From a virus, in the IMG/VR virus record IMGVR_UViG_3300042516_001671, positions 1 to 64,000 of that record: a DNA stretch of 64,000 nucleotides; one strand, 5' to 3'. Position numbers and translations under genes: made by a program. Every line of letters starts with the position of its first letter. The first letter of the stretch is position 1. The notes below the pieces were generated by a model, which saw only the letters and a list, made by a program, of their open reading frames with translations, ran no database searches and had not been told where the DNA came from. Shown one piece after another: positions 22,622 through 40,500 of this stretch.

Positions 22622-22657
22622 GACAAAAAACGGGGCCTCGGCCCCGTTGTCTTTTGT
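22622..22657. terminator. Bidirectional intrinsic terminator between convergent blocks
   Basis: AAAAAACGGGGC-CTCG-GCCCCGTTGTCTTTT. Confidence 0.85.
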
Positions 22658-24348
22658 CAGAACGCGTCTAGGTTCTCGGTGTACGTCCCTGCCGTACGGT
22701 TGAAGAGGAGGGTCGTTTCTCCCTGTGTCCCGACCCACCGATACCGGCATTTCCAAACAGCTATCTCGACGTATTTGTCCTGCCGGTGGACCGTCAAGCC
22801 GCAGTCTGCCTTGGCCCACCATGCCATTGACCCGCTGATGCTCATGCCATCTGGCCGGGGTTGATCTGTCCCTGACCGCGTCATCTTCGATGGGTGAGCG
22901 ACAAACCATGTGTGAACGTCCTGCGCCTTGCAAAACCTTTGGACCCTGGTCAGCATCTGACTGATAGCGTCAGTTTCTGTCGTGTCCTTACGGTCCAGGT
23001 CAATGTAGTTGTACGGGTCTATGACCATTCCCCGCACACCCATGCGCTTGACTGCTGCCCGGGCTCTGGTCAGGATGCTATCCAGAGTGTTGGGCTCTTC
23101 CCCCGCTGAGTCGATGAAGAGGAAGTGTTCCTTGACCCATGTAAACGCATCCTCCTTCTCCTTCTCAGTCATCCGATCCCGACCCTCGAAGAATCTCTTC
23201 CTCGTATAGATCTCCATCAGGCGACTGATATGGATCTCCGGGCTGTTCTCAAACGACGCAACAGCGAACTTCCAATCACTGTCCCTTGCGAGGTTGACCA
23301 TCAACTGATCAACGAAATTGGACTTGCCAGAAGATGGGTAGCCGGTGACCACGGTCAACTGCCCCGGCGCTACCGTGTAAATGGTGTCTAGAGACGAGTA
23401 CCCGGTTGTGAACCCCGACCCCTGACCCTTGGTGTATAGGTCGTTTACACGTTCCTCGAAGGTGCCGGCATCCGACAGGCCAGCGATGGGGTACGGCTCC
23501 GCAGCCTGGACGATCCGCTGCACCTCCTCCTTCCCATTCCGAGATGGGTCATTGAGGATCTCGTTGAAGTCCTTTGCATCGAACTTCGCAAGCCGGCACT
23601 TGTCCTTGCCGATCCTTCGCGCAAGCTCTTCAGCCAACGCTTGACCCGGAGGATCCTGATCCGTTGCCAAGACGACGTAAGGAACAGCATCCAGAAGTTC
23701 GCGTGCGTTCCATACAAATGCGAACTTTTTGTCCTCGGAAGGCATGACCTTCCCGTCCGCAACCTTCAAAGGCGCACCTCCCGGGACGCTGACGACGTTC
23801 TCTATCCCCGCTTCTTTTGCAGAGAGAACATCAATCTCTCCCTCAACGATAACCAGAGGCTTTGTCTTGTCTGTCCACTGCATTCCGAAGAAGTCATGTG
23901 CCCCTCCTGAATCTTGTGTAAATGCCTTGTCTGGTACGGCACGGTACTTCGCCGCGACTATCGTGCCATCTCTGAAGTATGGAAAGCCGATGGCATCTTC
24001 TTCCCTGTCCAGTTTGTTGAAGTACTTCCGAGAGGAGAACAGCTTGGCCTCGTCTGCCGTGAGCCTTGATATGCCTCTTCCTTCAAGCCACTGGTAATGC
24101 TGTTCTGTAAGCGTTGTGTCCTCGATCTTGGGGACTGCTTGCACGTATCTCTCCTTCCTGTGTTCTCTGTTATCCCTCGAAGGGATGATTCCGTTTACAC
24201 CGCAGTGATGGCAAAAGTAGAGCACTGACCCGTCTTCTTTACGGGTCAGGGTCATGTCTTTGCTTCTTGTCTTTTTCCTGTCCCCGGTGCATTCGGGACA
24301 GACTACGCGGGCGTTGTCTTGAAAATGAATCCCATCAAGGGCTATCAC
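22657..24348 (-). CDS. T7 gp4/Twinkle-like primase-helicase
   Basis: CPEC...CHHC Zn domain, VEGEID and ATDQD Toprim motifs, TGYPSSGKS Walker A, IDPYN, VAHP, ISGS. Confidence 0.93.
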   Translation of the reverse strand: MIALDGIHFQDNARVVCPECTGDRKKTRSKDMTLTRKEDGSVLYFCHHCGVNGIIPSRDNREHRKERYVQAVPKIEDTTLTEQHYQWLEGRGISRLTADEAKLFSSRKYFNKLDREEDAIGFPYFRDGTIVAAKYRAVPDKAFTQDSGGAHDFFGMQWTDKTKPLVIVEGEIDVLSAKEAGIENVVSVPGGAPLKVADGKVMPSEDKKFAFVWNARELLDAVPYVVLATDQDPPGQALAEELARRIGKDKCRLAKFDAKDFNEILNDPSRNGKEEVQRIVQAAEPYPIAGLSDAGTFEERVNDLYTKGQGSGFTTGYSSLDTIYTVAPGQLTVVTGYPSSGKSNFVDQLMVNLARDSDWKFAVASFENSPEIHISRLMEIYTRKRFFEGRDRMTEKEKEDAFTWVKEHFLFIDSAGEEPNTLDSILTRARAAVKRMGVRGMVIDPYNYIDLDRKDTTETDAISQMLTRVQRFCKAQDVHTWFVAHPSKMTRSGTDQPRPDGMSISGSMAWWAKADCGLTVHRQDKYVEIAVWKCRYRWVGTQGETTLLFNRTAGTYTENLDAF

Positions 24349-26036: not shown

Positions 26037-26087
26037 ATCCTAAGACAAGTTCAAAGGCTTTGCAAGGGTCAACCTCTGTGTTATCCT
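26037..26087. promoter_or_regulatory. Back-to-back sigma70 promoters sharing a palindromic -35 (TTGCAA 26060-26065)
   Basis: Minus: TTGCAA-17-TAGGAT; plus: TTGCAA-16-(TG)n-TATCCT. Confidence 0.7.
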
Positions 26088-26539
26088 TGTCTCCGCTCTG
26101 TTGCTGGAGCGATCTCCCTCCTGTGGCGCTTCGGCGCCTTGGCCCCGGTTGACCTCCGTCCCGGGGCCTTTTTTTGTCCCGGCATCTCCCGGACGGTGAT
26201 GACACATCGAGGGCACTCCTTGTCTTGATGCCAGTAGATGTGCTTCTCCTTGACCTGTCTGTCGTTTACATAGAGCCTTCCCTGGAGCAGATCCAAGATG
26301 AGGCTCTCGTCCAAGTCTGGCCGTCGGGAGGCGTACCAGATATGGATCTCCGCAGAGACATCCTTGTCCGTGGGGTTCTCCGCCGGGGCGCATTGCTGTT
26401 GAAACATCTCTGAGTAGGTTAGGGCCTTCTGGCTCTTGATCAGCCGAGACATCCCGCCGAACCGGACGACCCTCCTGCTGTTGGCCTTGCTCGCAGGCTC
26501 ACCAAAAATTTCTCTGGTTTCGCAGAAAAGTGCTTGCAC
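26081..26539 (-). CDS. rusA: RusA-like Holliday junction resolvase
   Basis: GEPASKANSR...RRPDLD...LD.LQG..Y.NDRQV; GTG start inferred; basic tail reads through the sRNA locus. Confidence 0.8.
   Translation of the reverse strand: MQALFCETREIFGEPASKANSRRVVRFGGMSRLIKSQKALTYSEMFQQQCAPAENPTDKDVSAEIHIWYASRRPDLDESLILDLLQGRLYVNDRQVKEKHIYWHQDKECPRCVITVREMPGQKKAPGRRSTGAKAPKRHRREIAPATERRQG
26094..26175 (+). ncRNA. Candidate ~80-nt small RNA with anti-Shine-Dalgarno segments
   Basis: Promoter, hairpin 26094-26111, unpaired AUCUCCCUCCUGU, C(UUCG)G hairpin, terminator hairpin with CUCC loop, U7. Confidence 0.7.
26141..26175 (+). terminator. Intrinsic terminator of the candidate sRNA
   Basis: GGCCCCGG..GAC-CTCC-GTC-CCGGGGCC-TTTTTTT. 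Confidence 0.85.
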
Positions 26540-26562
26540 ATCTTCGGCACTAGTGCTAGGAT
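26534..26562 (+). promoter_or_regulatory. Sigma70-type promoter with palindrome GCACTAGTGC in the spacer
   Basis: TTGCAC-17-(TG)n-TAGGAT upstream of CAGGAGG RBS. Confidence 0.7.
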
Positions 26563-26592
26563 CTGTCTCATCGTTCAACACAGGAGGTCTCC

Positions 26593-27468
26593 TTGATCAT
26601 CACGAACAACCATGGCGCCCCGGCTACGCTGGTCGCCTTGGCCCGGAAGAACTACTACTCGAAGGGGGACTCGGACTACTCCGTCACGGAGCTTCTGTCT
26701 CCCCCCAGGGTTCGACGGCTTCAGGAACGGCACGATGCCGCCCTGACAAAGGATGTCTCTGACATGCTCTGGGCCCTGCTCGGATCGGCACTCCATGTGG
26801 TAGCTGAGCGGGCCTCTGCCGAGGATCATGTCACAGAAGAGAGGATCGTCGCAGAGATCGACGGCGTCAAGGTCTCTGGCGGCATTGATCTCCAGGAGAT
26901 GACCCCCGAGGGAGTGATCATCACCGACTACAAGTTCACCTCTGCCTACTCCGTGATGAACGAGAAGAAGGAGTGGGAAGAGCAGTTGAACCTGTACAAG
27001 TGGCTGGTGGAATCCGTCAAGCGGATTCCGGTCAAGGGCCTTCGGATCTGCGCCCTGATCCGGGACTTCTCTCGCCATGACCGGCGGGAAAACTACCCGG
27101 ACGCTCCGATCCACATGGTGGACATCCCCATGTGGGACTCGGTGACCGCAGAGGCGTTTGTCCGCTCCCGTTTACAGCTTCACACTGAAGCCAAGTTTGC
27201 AGATGCGATGGAGGAGCCCCTTCCTCCATGCTCTGCGGAAGAGCGTTGGTTTTCCGAGACGACCTACGCTGTGAAGAAGGAAGGCAGGAAGACTGCCGTC
27301 CGCGTGTTCAAGACCATCGAAGAGGCCCAAGAGTTGGCCGCAAAGGAGAAGGGATATGTCGAAACCCGAGCAGGAGAGCCCCGCCGCTGCACCGGAAACT
27401 TCTGTGGAGTCGCAGAGTTCTGCGAGCAGTACCAGTCAGAAGTCAGTCTACGACTTGCTGAAACTTGA
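26593..27468 (+). CDS. PD-(D/E)xK exonuclease (RecB/Cas4-like) of recombination module
   Basis: SVTELL...G.ALH...E.R...SGGID...DYK...QLN.Y; C-terminal C...C..FC....FC. Confidence 0.85.
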   Translation: MIITNNHGAPATLVALARKNYYSKGDSDYSVTELLSPPRVRRLQERHDAALTKDVSDMLWALLGSALHVVAERASAEDHVTEERIVAEIDGVKVSGGIDLQEMTPEGVIITDYKFTSAYSVMNEKKEWEEQLNLYKWLVESVKRIPVKGLRICALIRDFSRHDRRENYPDAPIHMVDIPMWDSVTAEAFVRSRLQLHTEAKFADAMEEPLPPCSAEERWFSETTYAVKKEGRKTAVRVFKTIEEAQELAAKEKGYVETRAGEPRRCTGNFCGVAEFCEQYQSEVSLRLAET

Positions 27469-28132
27469 TGTCAGCAAGTTCATCGAGAAGAAGCAAGGGC
27501 TCAGCTACGTCTCCTGGGCTCATGCCTGGGCGATTGCCCTGAACGCAGATCCATACGCGAACTTCCGCGTCCATACGTTCGGGCCCAACGGTGACGAGTG
27601 CTACATGCGTGTAAATGGAACCGCGATGGTATGGGTGGATGTCACCCTCTTCTCCAAGTCCGTCACCTGCTGGCTGCCGGTCATGGACCACCGCAACAAG
27701 CCTATCGCTGACCCGGATTCTTTCCAGGTCAACACGGCACTCATGCGGTGTTTGACGAAGGCGCTGGGGTTCCACGGCCTGGGGCTGAACGTCTATGCCG
27801 GGGAAGATCTGCCTCTGTCCGTACCTGGAGAGGAAGAAGAGAAGCCCGCCAAAACGCCCGCAAAGGCTCAGAAGGACTCTCCCAAGGAGCCCGTGAAGGA
27901 GCCCGTGAAGGAGGAGGCGAAGAGCCCCGATGAAGATCCCCAACTGTCTGCAGAACTGTTTACAGAGGGGTTTGTGGAATACATGATCGTTGTGCAAAGC
28001 ACGGACGGCCTGAACAGCTACTGGAAGTCCAACCAGACCAAGCTGGACAAGCTCAAGGCGAAGTACCCCGATCTGTATGAGCGATGCCTGTCCGTTGCCA
28101 AGGACAGGAAGCAGCAACTGAGCAAGGAGTGA
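27356..28132 (+). CDS. Sak3/DUF1071-type single-strand annealing protein
   Basis: EKKQGLSYVSWAHAW...LPVMDHRNK...NT..MRCL.KA...GLGL..YAGEDLP. Confidence 0.85.
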   Translation: MSKPEQESPAAAPETSVESQSSASSTSQKSVYDLLKLDVSKFIEKKQGLSYVSWAHAWAIALNADPYANFRVHTFGPNGDECYMRVNGTAMVWVDVTLFSKSVTCWLPVMDHRNKPIADPDSFQVNTALMRCLTKALGFHGLGLNVYAGEDLPLSVPGEEEEKPAKTPAKAQKDSPKEPVKEPVKEEAKSPDEDPQLSAELFTEGFVEYMIVVQSTDGLNSYWKSNQTKLDKLKAKYPDLYERCLSVAKDRKQQLSKE

Positions 28133-30824: not shown

Positions 30825-31730
30825 ATGAAAACCAAGATGCTAACCAAGGCCCGTCGCCTATGGAACACGGGCAACACGCGCCTTGACCGGCGCAACCAAC
30901 GGGAATGGGTTCGTGCCATCCGCCGTCTGGGCGATAAGTGGCTGCTGGCGGTGCCGGTGGCGCGGAAGGAGGGGGTATGAAAGACACCGGAGGACCGGCG
31001 TTCCCCGTGAAGACGGCGATGTTCGACTGCACGCAGTCCGGCATGACCCTGCGCGACTACTTTGCGGCGAAGGCGATGCAGGCGCTGATTACGCGAATTT
31101 CCATGTCGGGTGTGGATCAAGCAAGAAAAGCGTACGAAATAGCCGACTCTATGCTGAAAGCGAGGAGCCAATGAGCAAGCACACACCGGGGCCGTGGGTG
31201 GTCGGCAACCAAGACCCGCTGAACTTTGGCGTGCCGCGCGGTTGGGGAACAGAACCCATCGGCTTTGTGTACGGCCCCAGCTTCCCAGAGCATTCTGAAG
31301 TCGGGCAACGCGCCCTTGCTAACGCCCGCCTGATCGCCGCCGCACCTGAGTTGCTGGAGGCGCTCCGAAGCATCGCGGACTGCTGCGATGAAGAACACGC
31401 CGCACGCGATTACGCATCTCGGCAGGCTGAGATTCGCGGCATTGCCCGCGCCGCCATCGCCAAAGCCACAGGAGAGCAACCATGACCCCCGAAGAAGAGA
31501 TCCGCCGCGTATTGCACCCGGAAGCGCATGAGCGTTTGAACGATGTCTACAAACCGATGGAGTTCAACCCTCGACCACAGGCCGCTGAGCCCTGCATCGA
31601 CCCCGACGAGATCGGCGGCAGGCCGTGGTATCAGGAGCAGCCAGAGCCGTGGTGGCCGTACATCTTGGGTGCAGTTTGCGCCATCCTGGCGCTGGTGCTG
31701 GTGTTTGCGCCGGTGGGGGTGCTGAAATGA
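30825..31730 (+). CDS. Four small coupled genes (30825-30980, 30977-31174 GGPAFP/GMTLRDYFA family, 31171-31485 HTPGPW/ANARLIAAAP family, 31482-31730)
   Basis: ATGA-overlapping chain; motifs typical of phage hyperplastic regions. Confidence 0.7.
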
Positions 31731-37560: not shown

Positions 37561-40500
37561 TCTCTTGGATGTTGGAGGCTAGGTTGTTCTCCAACTCCGT
37601 GATGTTGGCGATGATGTCCTTCTTTCCCTCTGCATCCATGGTGGAGGCGCGGACAAAGTTCTTCATCTCCCGGTACTGCTTCATGGACTTTTCCAGATCC
37701 AGGACAAAGTCCTTCGTGGCGAGGAGACCCATGTTCTCCTGCATGAACTCTCCCCATTCCTGGGGTTTCATGTTCCTCTCCAGGAGGTTGGCCGTCCGGA
37801 CAGCCTCGTCTACAGAGTTCTTCAACTCGTAGTACGCGGTGACTTGTCCTCGCGCCAGAGGATCCACAGCAAACCGCCGGATGACGGGCATCTGTTCAAA
37901 CCGCTTTGCTGCCTTGGGGGCATCGGTATTCATGTCATAGATGGCATCGAACAGATCCATCATGTATCCACCGATGGTTCCCGTATAGCCTCTGATCATC
38001 TCGTCAATCTTGACCGGAGACAGTTGGAGTGCCGTGGGTAGATCCTTGGTTGCTCCGCCGATCAGTTCTCCAATCCGGGATGTGCCGGGCGCGATCTGGT
38101 AAGCCGGGTTTACATCTTCCAGTCCCTGAGAGACGATAGGCCGTCCGGTGAAGAACGAGTAGTTCGTCACGGATTCAATGAGAGGAAGGGCTGTCTGGGG
38201 GATCGGGTTAAACGACAAGGTGCTGGTCAACTGCCTTGTCATGGACTTCAGGAAGTCCTTCCCGGTGTCGTCCCCAAAGCTGTACTCCAGGATCCGCTCA
38301 GGGATCACCTTGAACAGGACGCCGATTTCAAAGGGGATAGGGATCTTGACATCACCCAAGATCCAGTAGTTGTCCCGCGTTTCCTGCTCTTGTCTCTTCC
38401 ACTCATCATCTTCGGAGGCAAGCATCCAGTACATCGTGGACAGGGCTGCAATGGTCATGCCCCGGATGAAGAAGCTCTTCTGGATCTCCTTGGCGTTTGC
38501 TTCCGTGCCCCTCCCAAATGCCGCCCGGTACAGAACATCAAGGCCCTGCATCCGCGCATTCAAGAACGGCACTGCTGCGGTCAGAACCCGAACCATGGGG
38601 TTGTTGCCCTTCCGGTTGAAGTTCATCACCTCCACCGCCCGGAACAGAGCTTCCGCCTCATTGCCCGTCTCAGCAAGGGTCTTCTTGTAGACCTCCATAC
38701 GAGTTGCTGCGTCAGAGGCCGTCGTTCCCTTTTCAAGGGCATCCCAAAGAGAGACAAAGGGGCGGGCCAACTGCTCTGCTGGCGTATAAACACCCGCTTC
38801 CTTGCGAAGGGCCCGGTCAAACCTTTGTGCGCTGATCTCTACCCCTTGGGAGTAGTCATAGCCACCGATCACCCCAGAGTTGAGAAGTGCCGCGTATTCG
38901 GGGTTCTGCCCTCTTAGGGCCTTGGTGAAGTTTGTCAGGGTATCCACCATGGGTGTCATCTTGACCCCGGAAGACACCCAGGCAGACATCGAGTCCCGCA
39001 TCATGTTGGCAAGCATGAAGGCAGGATCCTTTGTGACCAAGTTCCGCAGCAGGTTTGCCGGCCCGGCCAGCAGGCCGATGAACGGCAGATCCCCCAGGTT
39101 CAGACTCTTCATGGCTTCCACGAAGAGAGGATCCTTGGTGGCGTAATATGAAGTTAGTCCATTTTCCAGAACTTTAATCACATTTGGAGCAGAAGAGGCA
39201 TAGTTCAGCCTATTGGCTTGTCCAATAAGCACAGCAGTGTTTACAGCCCTCTGTGCTGCGACGTTTTTCATCCCCGCTTCAATGGAATATTGGACGTTCC
39301 GAACCACGGTCTCCAGGAATTCTCCAATCTTTAATTCTGACTCTTTAAGTTTCTTCGGTGCGCGGACCCCTGACAAGGATGCAAAGATCTGGGGCCCGAC
39401 AGTCTCCTCCCCTTCTACCTGCCGATAGAAGGGGATGTAGTCCGAATACTTGACAAACTCCTTGGCCGCTTCTTCAGAGAGAACCCCGGTGTCCTTCAGA
39501 TATTTAACCAGACCATTGTTGAACTTGATCCATTCATCATGGATGTCTTTGAACTCAGGATGATCCTTGAGGATCTGCGCGGCAGTAGCACGATCTGCCG
39601 GCGTGATGATCCCGGTTTCTCTACCCTGTCCGTACAAACGGATGCCCCTGTTTATAGCGGCCCAGGTCTGGTACTTCTGGTAGATGAACGGATCGTTGTA
39701 CTTCGCCAGCGGGGCGAAGATGGCAATCGGCCCCTTGACCGTGTTGTTGTTGTTGACGATCTTGGTGTGACCGTTTACATACACAGGGATGCCGCCAACA
39801 CCGTCATGCACCCCCATGGCCCCGGCCAGAACACCGGCACTCAGATCAGACATGAGCGCAGCGCCATGAGAACTTGCATCTGCAAGCAGAGGAGCGCCGC
39901 CCATCAGGCGGACAAGCTCTTTGTCGTACTCGCTCAGACGGTTGTACCGATCCAGGAAAGCCGCCCGGAAGGACGATGCAGACTTCGGGGCAATGGCCTC
40001 GGTAATCCGCTTGATGAAGGACTTCTCTTCCCGTGGGGTGGTGATCTGATCAACCCGGGCACGGGTGACAGGATCTGTCGTATCACGCAGGCTTGCCTTG
40101 ATGCTCGGATCTACAGGATCAAACTTTCCAACGTTGCCGATGGCAGATTTGATCTGGGTAGGATTGAAAGCAACAATCTCCGTCAGCTTTCCATCCCGGT
40201 ACTGCATGAGACCGTCATAGCCCTGAGAAAGGGCTCGGTTCATCACTTGTTTTCCGATGTAGCCCTTCTCTTCATAAGCCTTCTCCACCATGGCCTCGGC
40301 CTTGTCCTGCTTCATGCCAAGCTGGACAAGAGCCATGATCATCGGGTCTTCGTTGCCTTTGTGTTTCAACAGCAAAGGTTTTTGCAGAGACACATACAGC
40401 GGCATTACATTGGGCGACTCGCCCTCTGCGTAATACGAAGCAAAACTTGCGCTTGGGGTCGTGTAAATGCCAGCACCAAGGGCGCCTTCTTTAGATACCC

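Follow-up and report, generated by a model that had tools for sequence, protein, structure and literature searches.

The stretch of DNA analyzed here (the window) is the first 64 kb (64,000 nucleotides) of the 95,467-bp IMG/VR virus record IMGVR_UViG_3300042516_001671, which is rated complete. On its plus strand, antisense to the 3' end of the Holliday-junction resolvase gene rusA, lies an element, present once in the record, that has the makings of a gene for a small RNA (sRNA) of about 80 nucleotides (nt) with an exposed CU-rich, anti-Shine-Dalgarno (anti-SD) stretch. An initial annotation had proposed such an unannotated gene, and the proposal is supported by the relatives of this phage. 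Its promoter, +1, three hairpins, seed, CUCC loop, and U7 run were all found where the annotation had placed them. The parts of the element are listed first, followed by its candidate target and the neighboring genes.

26060..26065, plus strand: -35-like hexamer TTGCAA, a palindrome that doubles as the -35 of a minus-strand promoter
26079..26087, plus strand: extended -10, TG-t-TATCCT, separated from the -35 by a 16-nt spacer and overlapped by the rusA stop
~26094/5, plus strand: predicted +1, about 7 nt downstream of the -10 box
26094..26111, plus strand: hairpin 1 (CGCUCU/GGAGCG), at the predicted 5' end, its loop carrying the family motif (C)UGUUGC, mostly GCAGUUG in relatives
26112..26124, plus strand: CU-rich seed AUCUCCCUCCUGU (anti-SD), unpaired in the minimum-free-energy and centroid folds
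26125..26138, plus strand: hairpin 2, GGCGC-UUCG-GCGCC with a C(UUCG)G loop, an insertion specific to a "long form" of the RNA
26141-26168, plus strand: intrinsic terminator hairpin with an 8-bp GC stem, an inner 3-bp stem, and a CUCC loop
26169-26175, plus strand: U7 run, directly 3' of the terminator hairpin
26579..26587, plus strand: candidate trans target CACAGGAGG, the Shine-Dalgarno (SD) region of exo, a 9-nt perfect complement to 26116-26124
26081..26581, minus strand: rusA open reading frame (ORF; Pfam RusA, E 6e-7, residues 27-131)
26593-27468, plus strand: PD-(D/E)XK exonuclease gene (exo), divergent from rusA, with a TTG start at 26593
27356-28132, plus strand: gene for a Sak-type annealing protein (sak), the downstream partner of exo
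22657-24348, minus strand: primase-helicase gene, past small ORFs and further along the minus strand

The rusA ORF spans the whole element, with its stop codon (26081-26083, minus strand) falling within the -10 box and its last 30 or so codons forming the reverse complement of the sRNA gene. For 26094-26176, RNAfold predicts a minimum-free-energy structure made up of exactly the three hairpins with the seed unpaired, at -39.2 kcal/mol (z = -4.0), and none of 200 shuffled sequences was as stable. The terminator comprises a GC-rich stem-loop with the U-run directly after it and a stem kept by compensatory changes among relatives; the scan tool had listed just its inner part. A U-rich stretch ahead of the terminator and a U-tail of at least six residues, features considered for dependence on Hfq or ProQ, are also present. 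As modeled, this series of 5' hairpin, open CU-rich stretch, U-rich tract, terminator, and U-tail is typical of regulatory RNAs that act by base pairing.

The absence of any plausible ORF inside the element, as initially annotated, stood in part. Plus-strand ORFs of 30 to 32 amino acids with TTG starts do overlap the sRNA region, but they lack an SD sequence, and the 50- to 65-nt forms found in relatives are too short for them. The further suggestion of a type I-like antitoxin RNA had to be dropped. A small antisense RNA ending in a terminator is the layout of such antitoxins, but there is no small hydrophobic ORF, and hence no toxin, opposite or beside the element, where the opposite strand encodes the RusA tail. 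Most relatives have no room for a toxin ORF, since in the compact ones only about 40 nt lie between the rusA stop and the sRNA promoter, and we regard this role as hardly credible.

To place the element in a wider context, relatives were collected from IMG/VR. A RusA-based search gave 53 loci (first set), and an alignment-based search gave at least 569 stretches with this type of RusA, 80 of which were fetched. About 80 distinct relatives, with RusA proteins 52 to 98% identical, were examined; the second set consisted of 48 new distinct sequences, picked without regard to the RNA. As these samples are small and their members related, the numbers given below are treated as supportive and not as probabilities. 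Throughout the relatives, the same gene order was kept: exo followed by sak on one side, divergent from rusA, and on the other side rusA with the antisense sRNA at its end, a variable region, and the primase/helicase genes. All of the approximately 33 distinct sequences of the first set share, on the strand antisense to rusA, a -10-like box, a 5' hairpin, a CU-rich stretch, a GC-rich hairpin, and a U-run. The -10-like hexamers are mostly TACACT, TAAACT, TATACT, and TACAAT, with the hairpin beginning about 7 nt later. This 5' hairpin usually carries GCAGUUG in its loop or 3' arm, a motif nearly invariant in alignment A1, and the CU-rich stretch that follows (for example, CUCCUU or CUCCCU) was unpaired in 33/33 folded relatives. 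The predicted length, about 80 nt in the window phage, ranges from 51 to 88 nt in relatives. The long form, with its extra hairpin between seed and terminator, occurs in the window clade (loci L002 to L005, L007, and L065), in L008 and L009, and in L158. The seed is invariant in the window clade and in L158; in the latter, which is more distant, the seed UCUCCCUCCUGUG is kept and the hairpins are new yet still complementary.

This recurrence is far beyond chance. A -10-like hexamer, defined by T1, A2, and T6 with at least 4/6 matches, was found in 34/34 distinct upstream regions of the first set, compared to 8/34 on the opposite strand and 12.7 ± 2.6 in shuffles. In the second set, 47 of the 48 new distinct relatives have an antisense terminator at the end of rusA. 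A -10-like box accompanies all 47 of these terminators (12 on the other strand; 23.8 ± 3.3 in shuffles), and CTCC or TCCT lies no more than 45 nt from 46 of them (23.6 ± 3.4 in shuffles). GGAG or AGGA was present within the same 45 nt in only 2 of the 47 relatives, and the GUUG motif was present in 29. A covariance model of the RNA (R1) gave one strong match per locus, at the right place and on the right strand, with 28 to 68 bits, including sequences outside the model's own seed, and matched at the expected place in 24 of 60 further loci.

The helices were also conserved as helices. In a structure-aware alignment of 35 distinct sequences, covariation in the terminator helix reached 0.288, compared to 0.075 in shuffles (0/500 as high) and at most 0.088 in slid controls. 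Within the window clade together with L008 and L009, all three helices have at least one two-sided change, and 88.7% of the cells are paired, versus no more than 53% when slid. The sixth pair of hairpin 1 is U.G in the window and L065 and A-U in L003 to L005, and hairpin 2 (GGCGC/GCGCC) has the compensatory variants GACGCC/GGCGUC (L004), GGCGU/ACGCC (L065), and GCGGC/GCCGC (L158). The terminator stem changes from GGCCCCGG to GACCCCGG with a compensating change on its 3' side (G-C to A-U). The initial annotation was to be given up if hairpins and seed proved not to be conserved in related phages; the result was the opposite, conservation with compensatory changes.

Part of this evidence could be met by a bare protective terminator that blocks stray plus-strand transcription into rusA and exo, with no discrete RNA and with the "-10" and the motifs acting as other signals, such as operators of the minus-strand promoter. 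The terminator is the best-supported part of the element, the window clade fits model R1 in the terminator only (13.9 bits), the -35 elements are mostly poor, and the conserved 7-mer GCAGUUG could be a DNA site. Nevertheless, such an explanation leaves aside the -10-like box, which stands at a fixed short distance on the same strand in 81/81 distinct relatives, versus about a quarter on the other strand. It is also at odds with the compensatory changes in helices 1 and 2 and with G.U pairs that favor the antisense strand, and the 7-mer is single, with no dyad. We therefore consider a bare terminator improbable.

Since the opposite strand of the element folds equally well, folding alone cannot pick the strand. 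Other features point to the strand antisense to rusA, which carries the -10 boxes. A U-run 3' of the hairpin exists on this strand only, being on the rusA strand an A-run before the hairpin, and G.U pairs in the predicted helices number 29 when these are read from the antisense strand and 10 when read from the rusA strand. Relative to rusA, 14 sequences have the conserved 7-mer in frame 0, 7 in frame 1, and 11 in frame 2, and the rusA stop precedes it in 23 of the 32 sequences, the conserved motifs in general lying mostly beyond that stop. In L005, the conserved DNA is read in a rusA frame different from that of its close relatives. A motif that occurs in all three frames and mostly past the stop indicates a constraint on RNA or DNA and not on protein. 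The protein appears instead to follow the RNA: of the invariant RusA tail residues, K138 is the U-run read in reverse and P140 the GGG of the stem, and the residues between them vary with the stem (P-R...R-G versus P-A...R-A). The U-run and stem, reversed, thus give the Lys-Lys-x-Pro of RusA, so that the terminator writes the tail of the protein.

The same A-run raises the case of a programmed -1 frameshift in rusA, in which the slippery heptamer A_AAA_AAG (26174-26168, minus strand) and the stable hairpin after it would yield two C-terminal RusA tails. Both the window and many relatives do have the heptamer in the zero frame, followed by a strong hairpin. However, the spacer is 0, the hairpin starting at the last base of the heptamer; known dnaX-type -1 sites typically have 5 to 9 nt between heptamer and structure. 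A proper X_XXY_YYZ is missing in several relatives (C_AAA_AAG, G_AAA_AAA, and A_AAA_AAT), and with loops that range from 4 to 14 nt, the conserved DNA beyond them is spread over all three frames, so that no conserved -1 product results. The -10 box would also go unexplained, and a frameshift is very improbable.

Turning to possible targets, the initial annotation had listed four ACAGGAG ribosome-binding sites (RBSs) of the phage as complementary to the seed. All four exist (17240, 21118, 26580, and 31468) and the 9-nt match at exo is real, but the "10-nt" match at 31465-31474 needs the first bases of hairpin 2. Among the 168 start regions of the window, the exo RBS ranks first for the seed, at -18.2 kcal/mol versus -16.1 for the next, with a cofold ddG of -9.8 kcal/mol. 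In 21 clade representatives, cognate pairs of sRNA and exo RBS fit better than swapped ones, both in their longest complement (LCS; 5.67 versus 4.93 nt, p 0.002) and in duplex energy (p 0.013). Examples of cognate pairs are UCACUCCA/UGGAGUGA, ACUCUCC/GGAGAGU, UACUCCUU/AAGGAGUA, and CCUCCUGUG/CACAGGAGG. An independent set of 47 sequences repeated the result more weakly (energy, p 0.003; LCS, p 0.02 to 0.04; rusA control, p 0.76 to 0.94), and no cognate advantage was seen at the RBSs of sak, rusA, primase, and o204 (p 0.72 to 0.98). The translational repression of recombination genes that had been proposed is partly supported, by the rank of the exo RBS and by its cognate fit in two sets, a fit that we regard as suggestive, not decisive. 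The idea of a wider, multigene regulon did not survive these comparisons; ACA-prefixed GGAG RBSs are mildly enriched (4/63 versus a background of 2.3%), and complements of the seed in the window are as frequent as simulated.

Several observations weigh against an sRNA gene directed at exo. As to the gene, the two strands show no significant difference in minimum free energy (p 0.12), and the promoter in the window is weak, matching 8/12 consensus positions plus the TG, below the cutoff of the scan tool and therefore unlisted by it. The -35 TTGCAA is kept in L002 to L005 and L007, with TTGTCA at the same place in L008 and L009, and a good -35 is absent in most other relatives. Seven sequencing runs contain small shares of the stretch, all as assembled contigs, which cannot show a small RNA; four of these runs are probably DNA, and the contigs of the true RNA run miss 26094-26176. 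As to the target, complements of at least 8 nt to the 16-nt seed number 25 in the window against 20.2 ± 4.0 simulated, which is chance level, and any CU-rich RNA matches SD sequences. The effect at the exo RBS is small (about 0.3 to 0.7 nt or 1 kcal/mol), some clades drive it, and the statistics ignore kinship; the reverse-complement control in the 47-sequence set already gave p 0.05 to 0.11. L158 is a partial counterexample, as it keeps the window-type seed with a different exo RBS. Finally, nothing tested explains the strong conservation of the GCAGUUG motif. Given these points, that the exo RBS is a real target is possible, with the chances leaning somewhat against it.

Other roles for the conserved sequences were considered and rejected. 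GUUGC and the CU stretch could not both pair with the exo leader at the same time, since their crossed order makes this topologically impossible. Mimicry of the 16S rRNA 3' end was compared to the real 16S ends of two genomes, where the anti-SD core alone is similar (mean z 1.6) and the GCGGCUGG part is not (z -0.3). A second, trans copy of the GCAACTG complement was sought in the loci of the relatives and in the window, and no consistent site was found.

The layout of the element is closest to that of the lambda OOP RNA, to which it is not homologous. Transcription of OOP starts at pO and stops at tO within cII, the RNA overlapping the 3' end of cII by 52 nt just before the replication gene O (PMC5869508). 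Ahead of the replication genes, transcription from pR is reduced by the convergent pO promoter (PMC3985674). In both cases, a short RNA with its own promoter (here a predicted one) is convergent with the upstream gene and directly precedes replication genes, and an intrinsic terminator lies within the 3' coding end of the convergent gene (here rusA, in the window and in 47/48 new relatives). The partner gene differs, being rusA here and cII for OOP, and the unpaired CU-rich stretch and the 7-mer are conserved here beyond what pairing in cis needs. No homology to OOP was detected, either with model R1 (at most 1.2 bits on lambda 38300-38900) or in a comparison by eye.

The lambda precedent (PMC5869508 and PMC3985674) gives weight to an element that acts in cis only, with the rusA transcript as its sole partner, the double-stranded RNA then being cleaved, or with convergent transcription limiting read-through, and with a CU stretch that has no target in trans. 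By construction, its complementarity to the rusA 3' end is perfect; moreover, the terminator lies within the rusA coding end in all relatives, a same-direction promoter and the replication genes come immediately after the element, and the statistics for a trans target are weak. On the other hand, the CU-rich stretch and GCAGUUG are kept while the flanks, the loop sizes, and the overlapped rusA frame change, and the overlap with the rusA ORF is confined to the terminator in most relatives. A cis-only antisense RNA needs no conserved primary sequence, which favors a conserved partner, and we consider a purely cis-acting element a serious contender that is nonetheless rather unlikely.

Overall, the comparison of relatives supports an sRNA gene well, as far as sequence can tell. 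To the fuller explanation, a real conserved gene for a small noncoding RNA that most likely pairs through its anti-SD stretch with the exo RBS and has OOP-like effects in cis as well, we give about an even chance; its transcription, its target, and the direction of regulation are what we infer. The RNA would be transcribed on the plus strand from its own sigma70-type promoter, convergent with rusA, and would stop at the intrinsic terminator within the last rusA codons. Its CU-rich stretch could then pair with an SD region and block ribosome access, the best candidate partner being the exo RBS at 26579-26587, in front of the first gene of the exo-Sak recombination operon. Being fully complementary to the 3' end of the rusA mRNA, the RNA may pair with that transcript as well, and its convergent promoter could dampen rusA read-through into the primase-helicase genes, as lambda pO/OOP does.

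A bolder extension, which we hold to be speculative and unlikely, is that one sRNA couples two recombination nucleases. Its body would be antisense to the 3' end of the rusA mRNA, and its seed would coevolve with, and mask, the exo/Sak RBS. With the mutually antisense 5' ends of rusA and exo, this would make a three-RNA circuit, conserved in many uncultured phages, that could time the shift from resection and annealing to junction resolution and replication, with GCAGUUG as a handle for a protein partner. As to those 5' ends, the exo and rusA SDs form one palindrome, AGGAGGTCTCCTT (window 26579-26597; SD pair 26583-26595), and a distance of 12 nt between the two start codons means that the two mRNAs must be antisense to each other at their 5' ends. 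Within rusA, 26534-26562 holds a possible exo promoter, TTGCAC-17-TAGGAT; this is our own reading, unlisted by the scan tool. The predicted Sak start sits 113 nt within the exo ORF, in a different frame (27356-27468), and the Sak SD (AAGGAG) is made by exo codons for K-E-K-G.

Among known RNAs, no family of Rfam 15 reached its gathering threshold for the element in the window and in the loci of 20 relatives. The closest candidate, sX13 (RF02232), scored 16.5 bits in the window against a gathering threshold of 50 (E = 2), and this match, like weak ones to NsiR1 and ar14, is driven by the terminator. Like Xanthomonas sX13, the element is a small, terminator-ended RNA exposing a C/U-rich sequence able to pair with G-rich RBSs; unlike the sX13 type, it has the motif in a linker and not in hairpin loops, and it is phage encoded and antisense to the end of a gene. 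C- or CU-rich anti-SD sRNAs also include the RsaE/RoxS and CcsR types. The small phage RNAs P22 sar and P1/P7 c4 mask the RBS of a phage gene; they are encoded opposite or next to their target and processed from longer transcripts. The present RNA is likewise a small phage RNA and a candidate for masking a phage-gene RBS, but the RBS in question is on the same strand at a distance of about 450 nt, and the RNA matches no Rfam family. No paper describing an sRNA antisense to rusA was found in the literature. Outside its tables, a catalogue of 10,006 viral candidate RNAs mentions RusA only for candidates upstream of RusA (PMC10690425).

The RNA was not found in the bacterial genomes and isolated phages searched. 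RusA relatives in metagenome-assembled genomes (MAGs) and Burkholderiales prophages have no R1-type RNA, and 151 genomes of one order yielded generic terminators only, with no rusA or exo nearby. The nearest isolated phages (Planktothrix/Synechococcus; exo 41% and RusA 49% identical) have convergent genes after rusA and no such RNA. The hosts are probably Proteobacteria, perhaps Betaproteobacteria, because the Betaproteobacteria-1 RNA (RF02932, 92 to 95 bits) lies between rusA and primase, on the rusA strand, in three relatives (L010:3900-4017, L024:2556-2673, and L025:3679-3795) and because RusA relatives occur in betaproteobacterial MAG bins and Burkholderiales prophages. In L021, the same slot holds a tRNA (3940-4015); varied RNA genes thus occur at this place. 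Runs sharing words with the stretch are mostly labeled aquatic (one soil, one marine), a weak hint as to habitat. Many related IMG/VR contigs are 60 to 65 kb long, which suggests a common genome size; the record of the window is 95 kb.

Further features were seen around the element. On the antisense strand downstream of rusA, L069 and L070 (MAG contigs) carry a different unit, with the promoter TTGACA-17-TATAAT (TATGAT in L069), an exposed AAGCCUCCUGU, and a terminator with U7 to U8; it is a second, unrelated-looking candidate for an anti-SD RNA. An 8-bp palindrome, GTTTAAAC, occurs in 2 to 9 copies per locus of about 6 kb in most of the relatives L010 to L054 (a single copy in L051), where about 0.1 is expected. 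Its sites lie both between and inside genes (for example, L041:3453, 3501, and 3553, and nine in L050) and often overlap the sRNA -10 box (GTTTAAACT). The palindrome is missing altogether from the 64-kb window, and the examined loci of L002 to L009 yielded no copy either. Back to back with the sRNA promoter, a minus-strand promoter, TTGCAA-17-TAGGAT (26037-26065, -10 at 26037-26042), shares the palindromic -35. A long stem structure lies 3' of it at 26030-25940 (161-nt fold, z -3.5), and its outer stem covaries in L003 (UGAUGACCCCC/GGGGGUUUUCA to UGACCACCCUC/GGGGGUGGUCA), which marks it as a structured leader and not as a terminator. In other relatives, this position holds a promoter together with different structured RNAs.

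If the sRNA is transcribed, a large group of uncultured aquatic phages shares an RNA family that is undescribed and has no entry in Rfam 15. The pair formed by the sRNA and the exo RBS is directly testable with compensatory mutations. The locus also suggests that a protein can owe its C-terminal residues to an RNA terminator, as RusA does with its Lys-Lys-x-Pro. Moreover, transcription of the element would mean that the lambda OOP layout, in which a small convergent RNA stands just before replication genes and has its terminator within the gene that precedes it, recurs outside the lambdoid phages.

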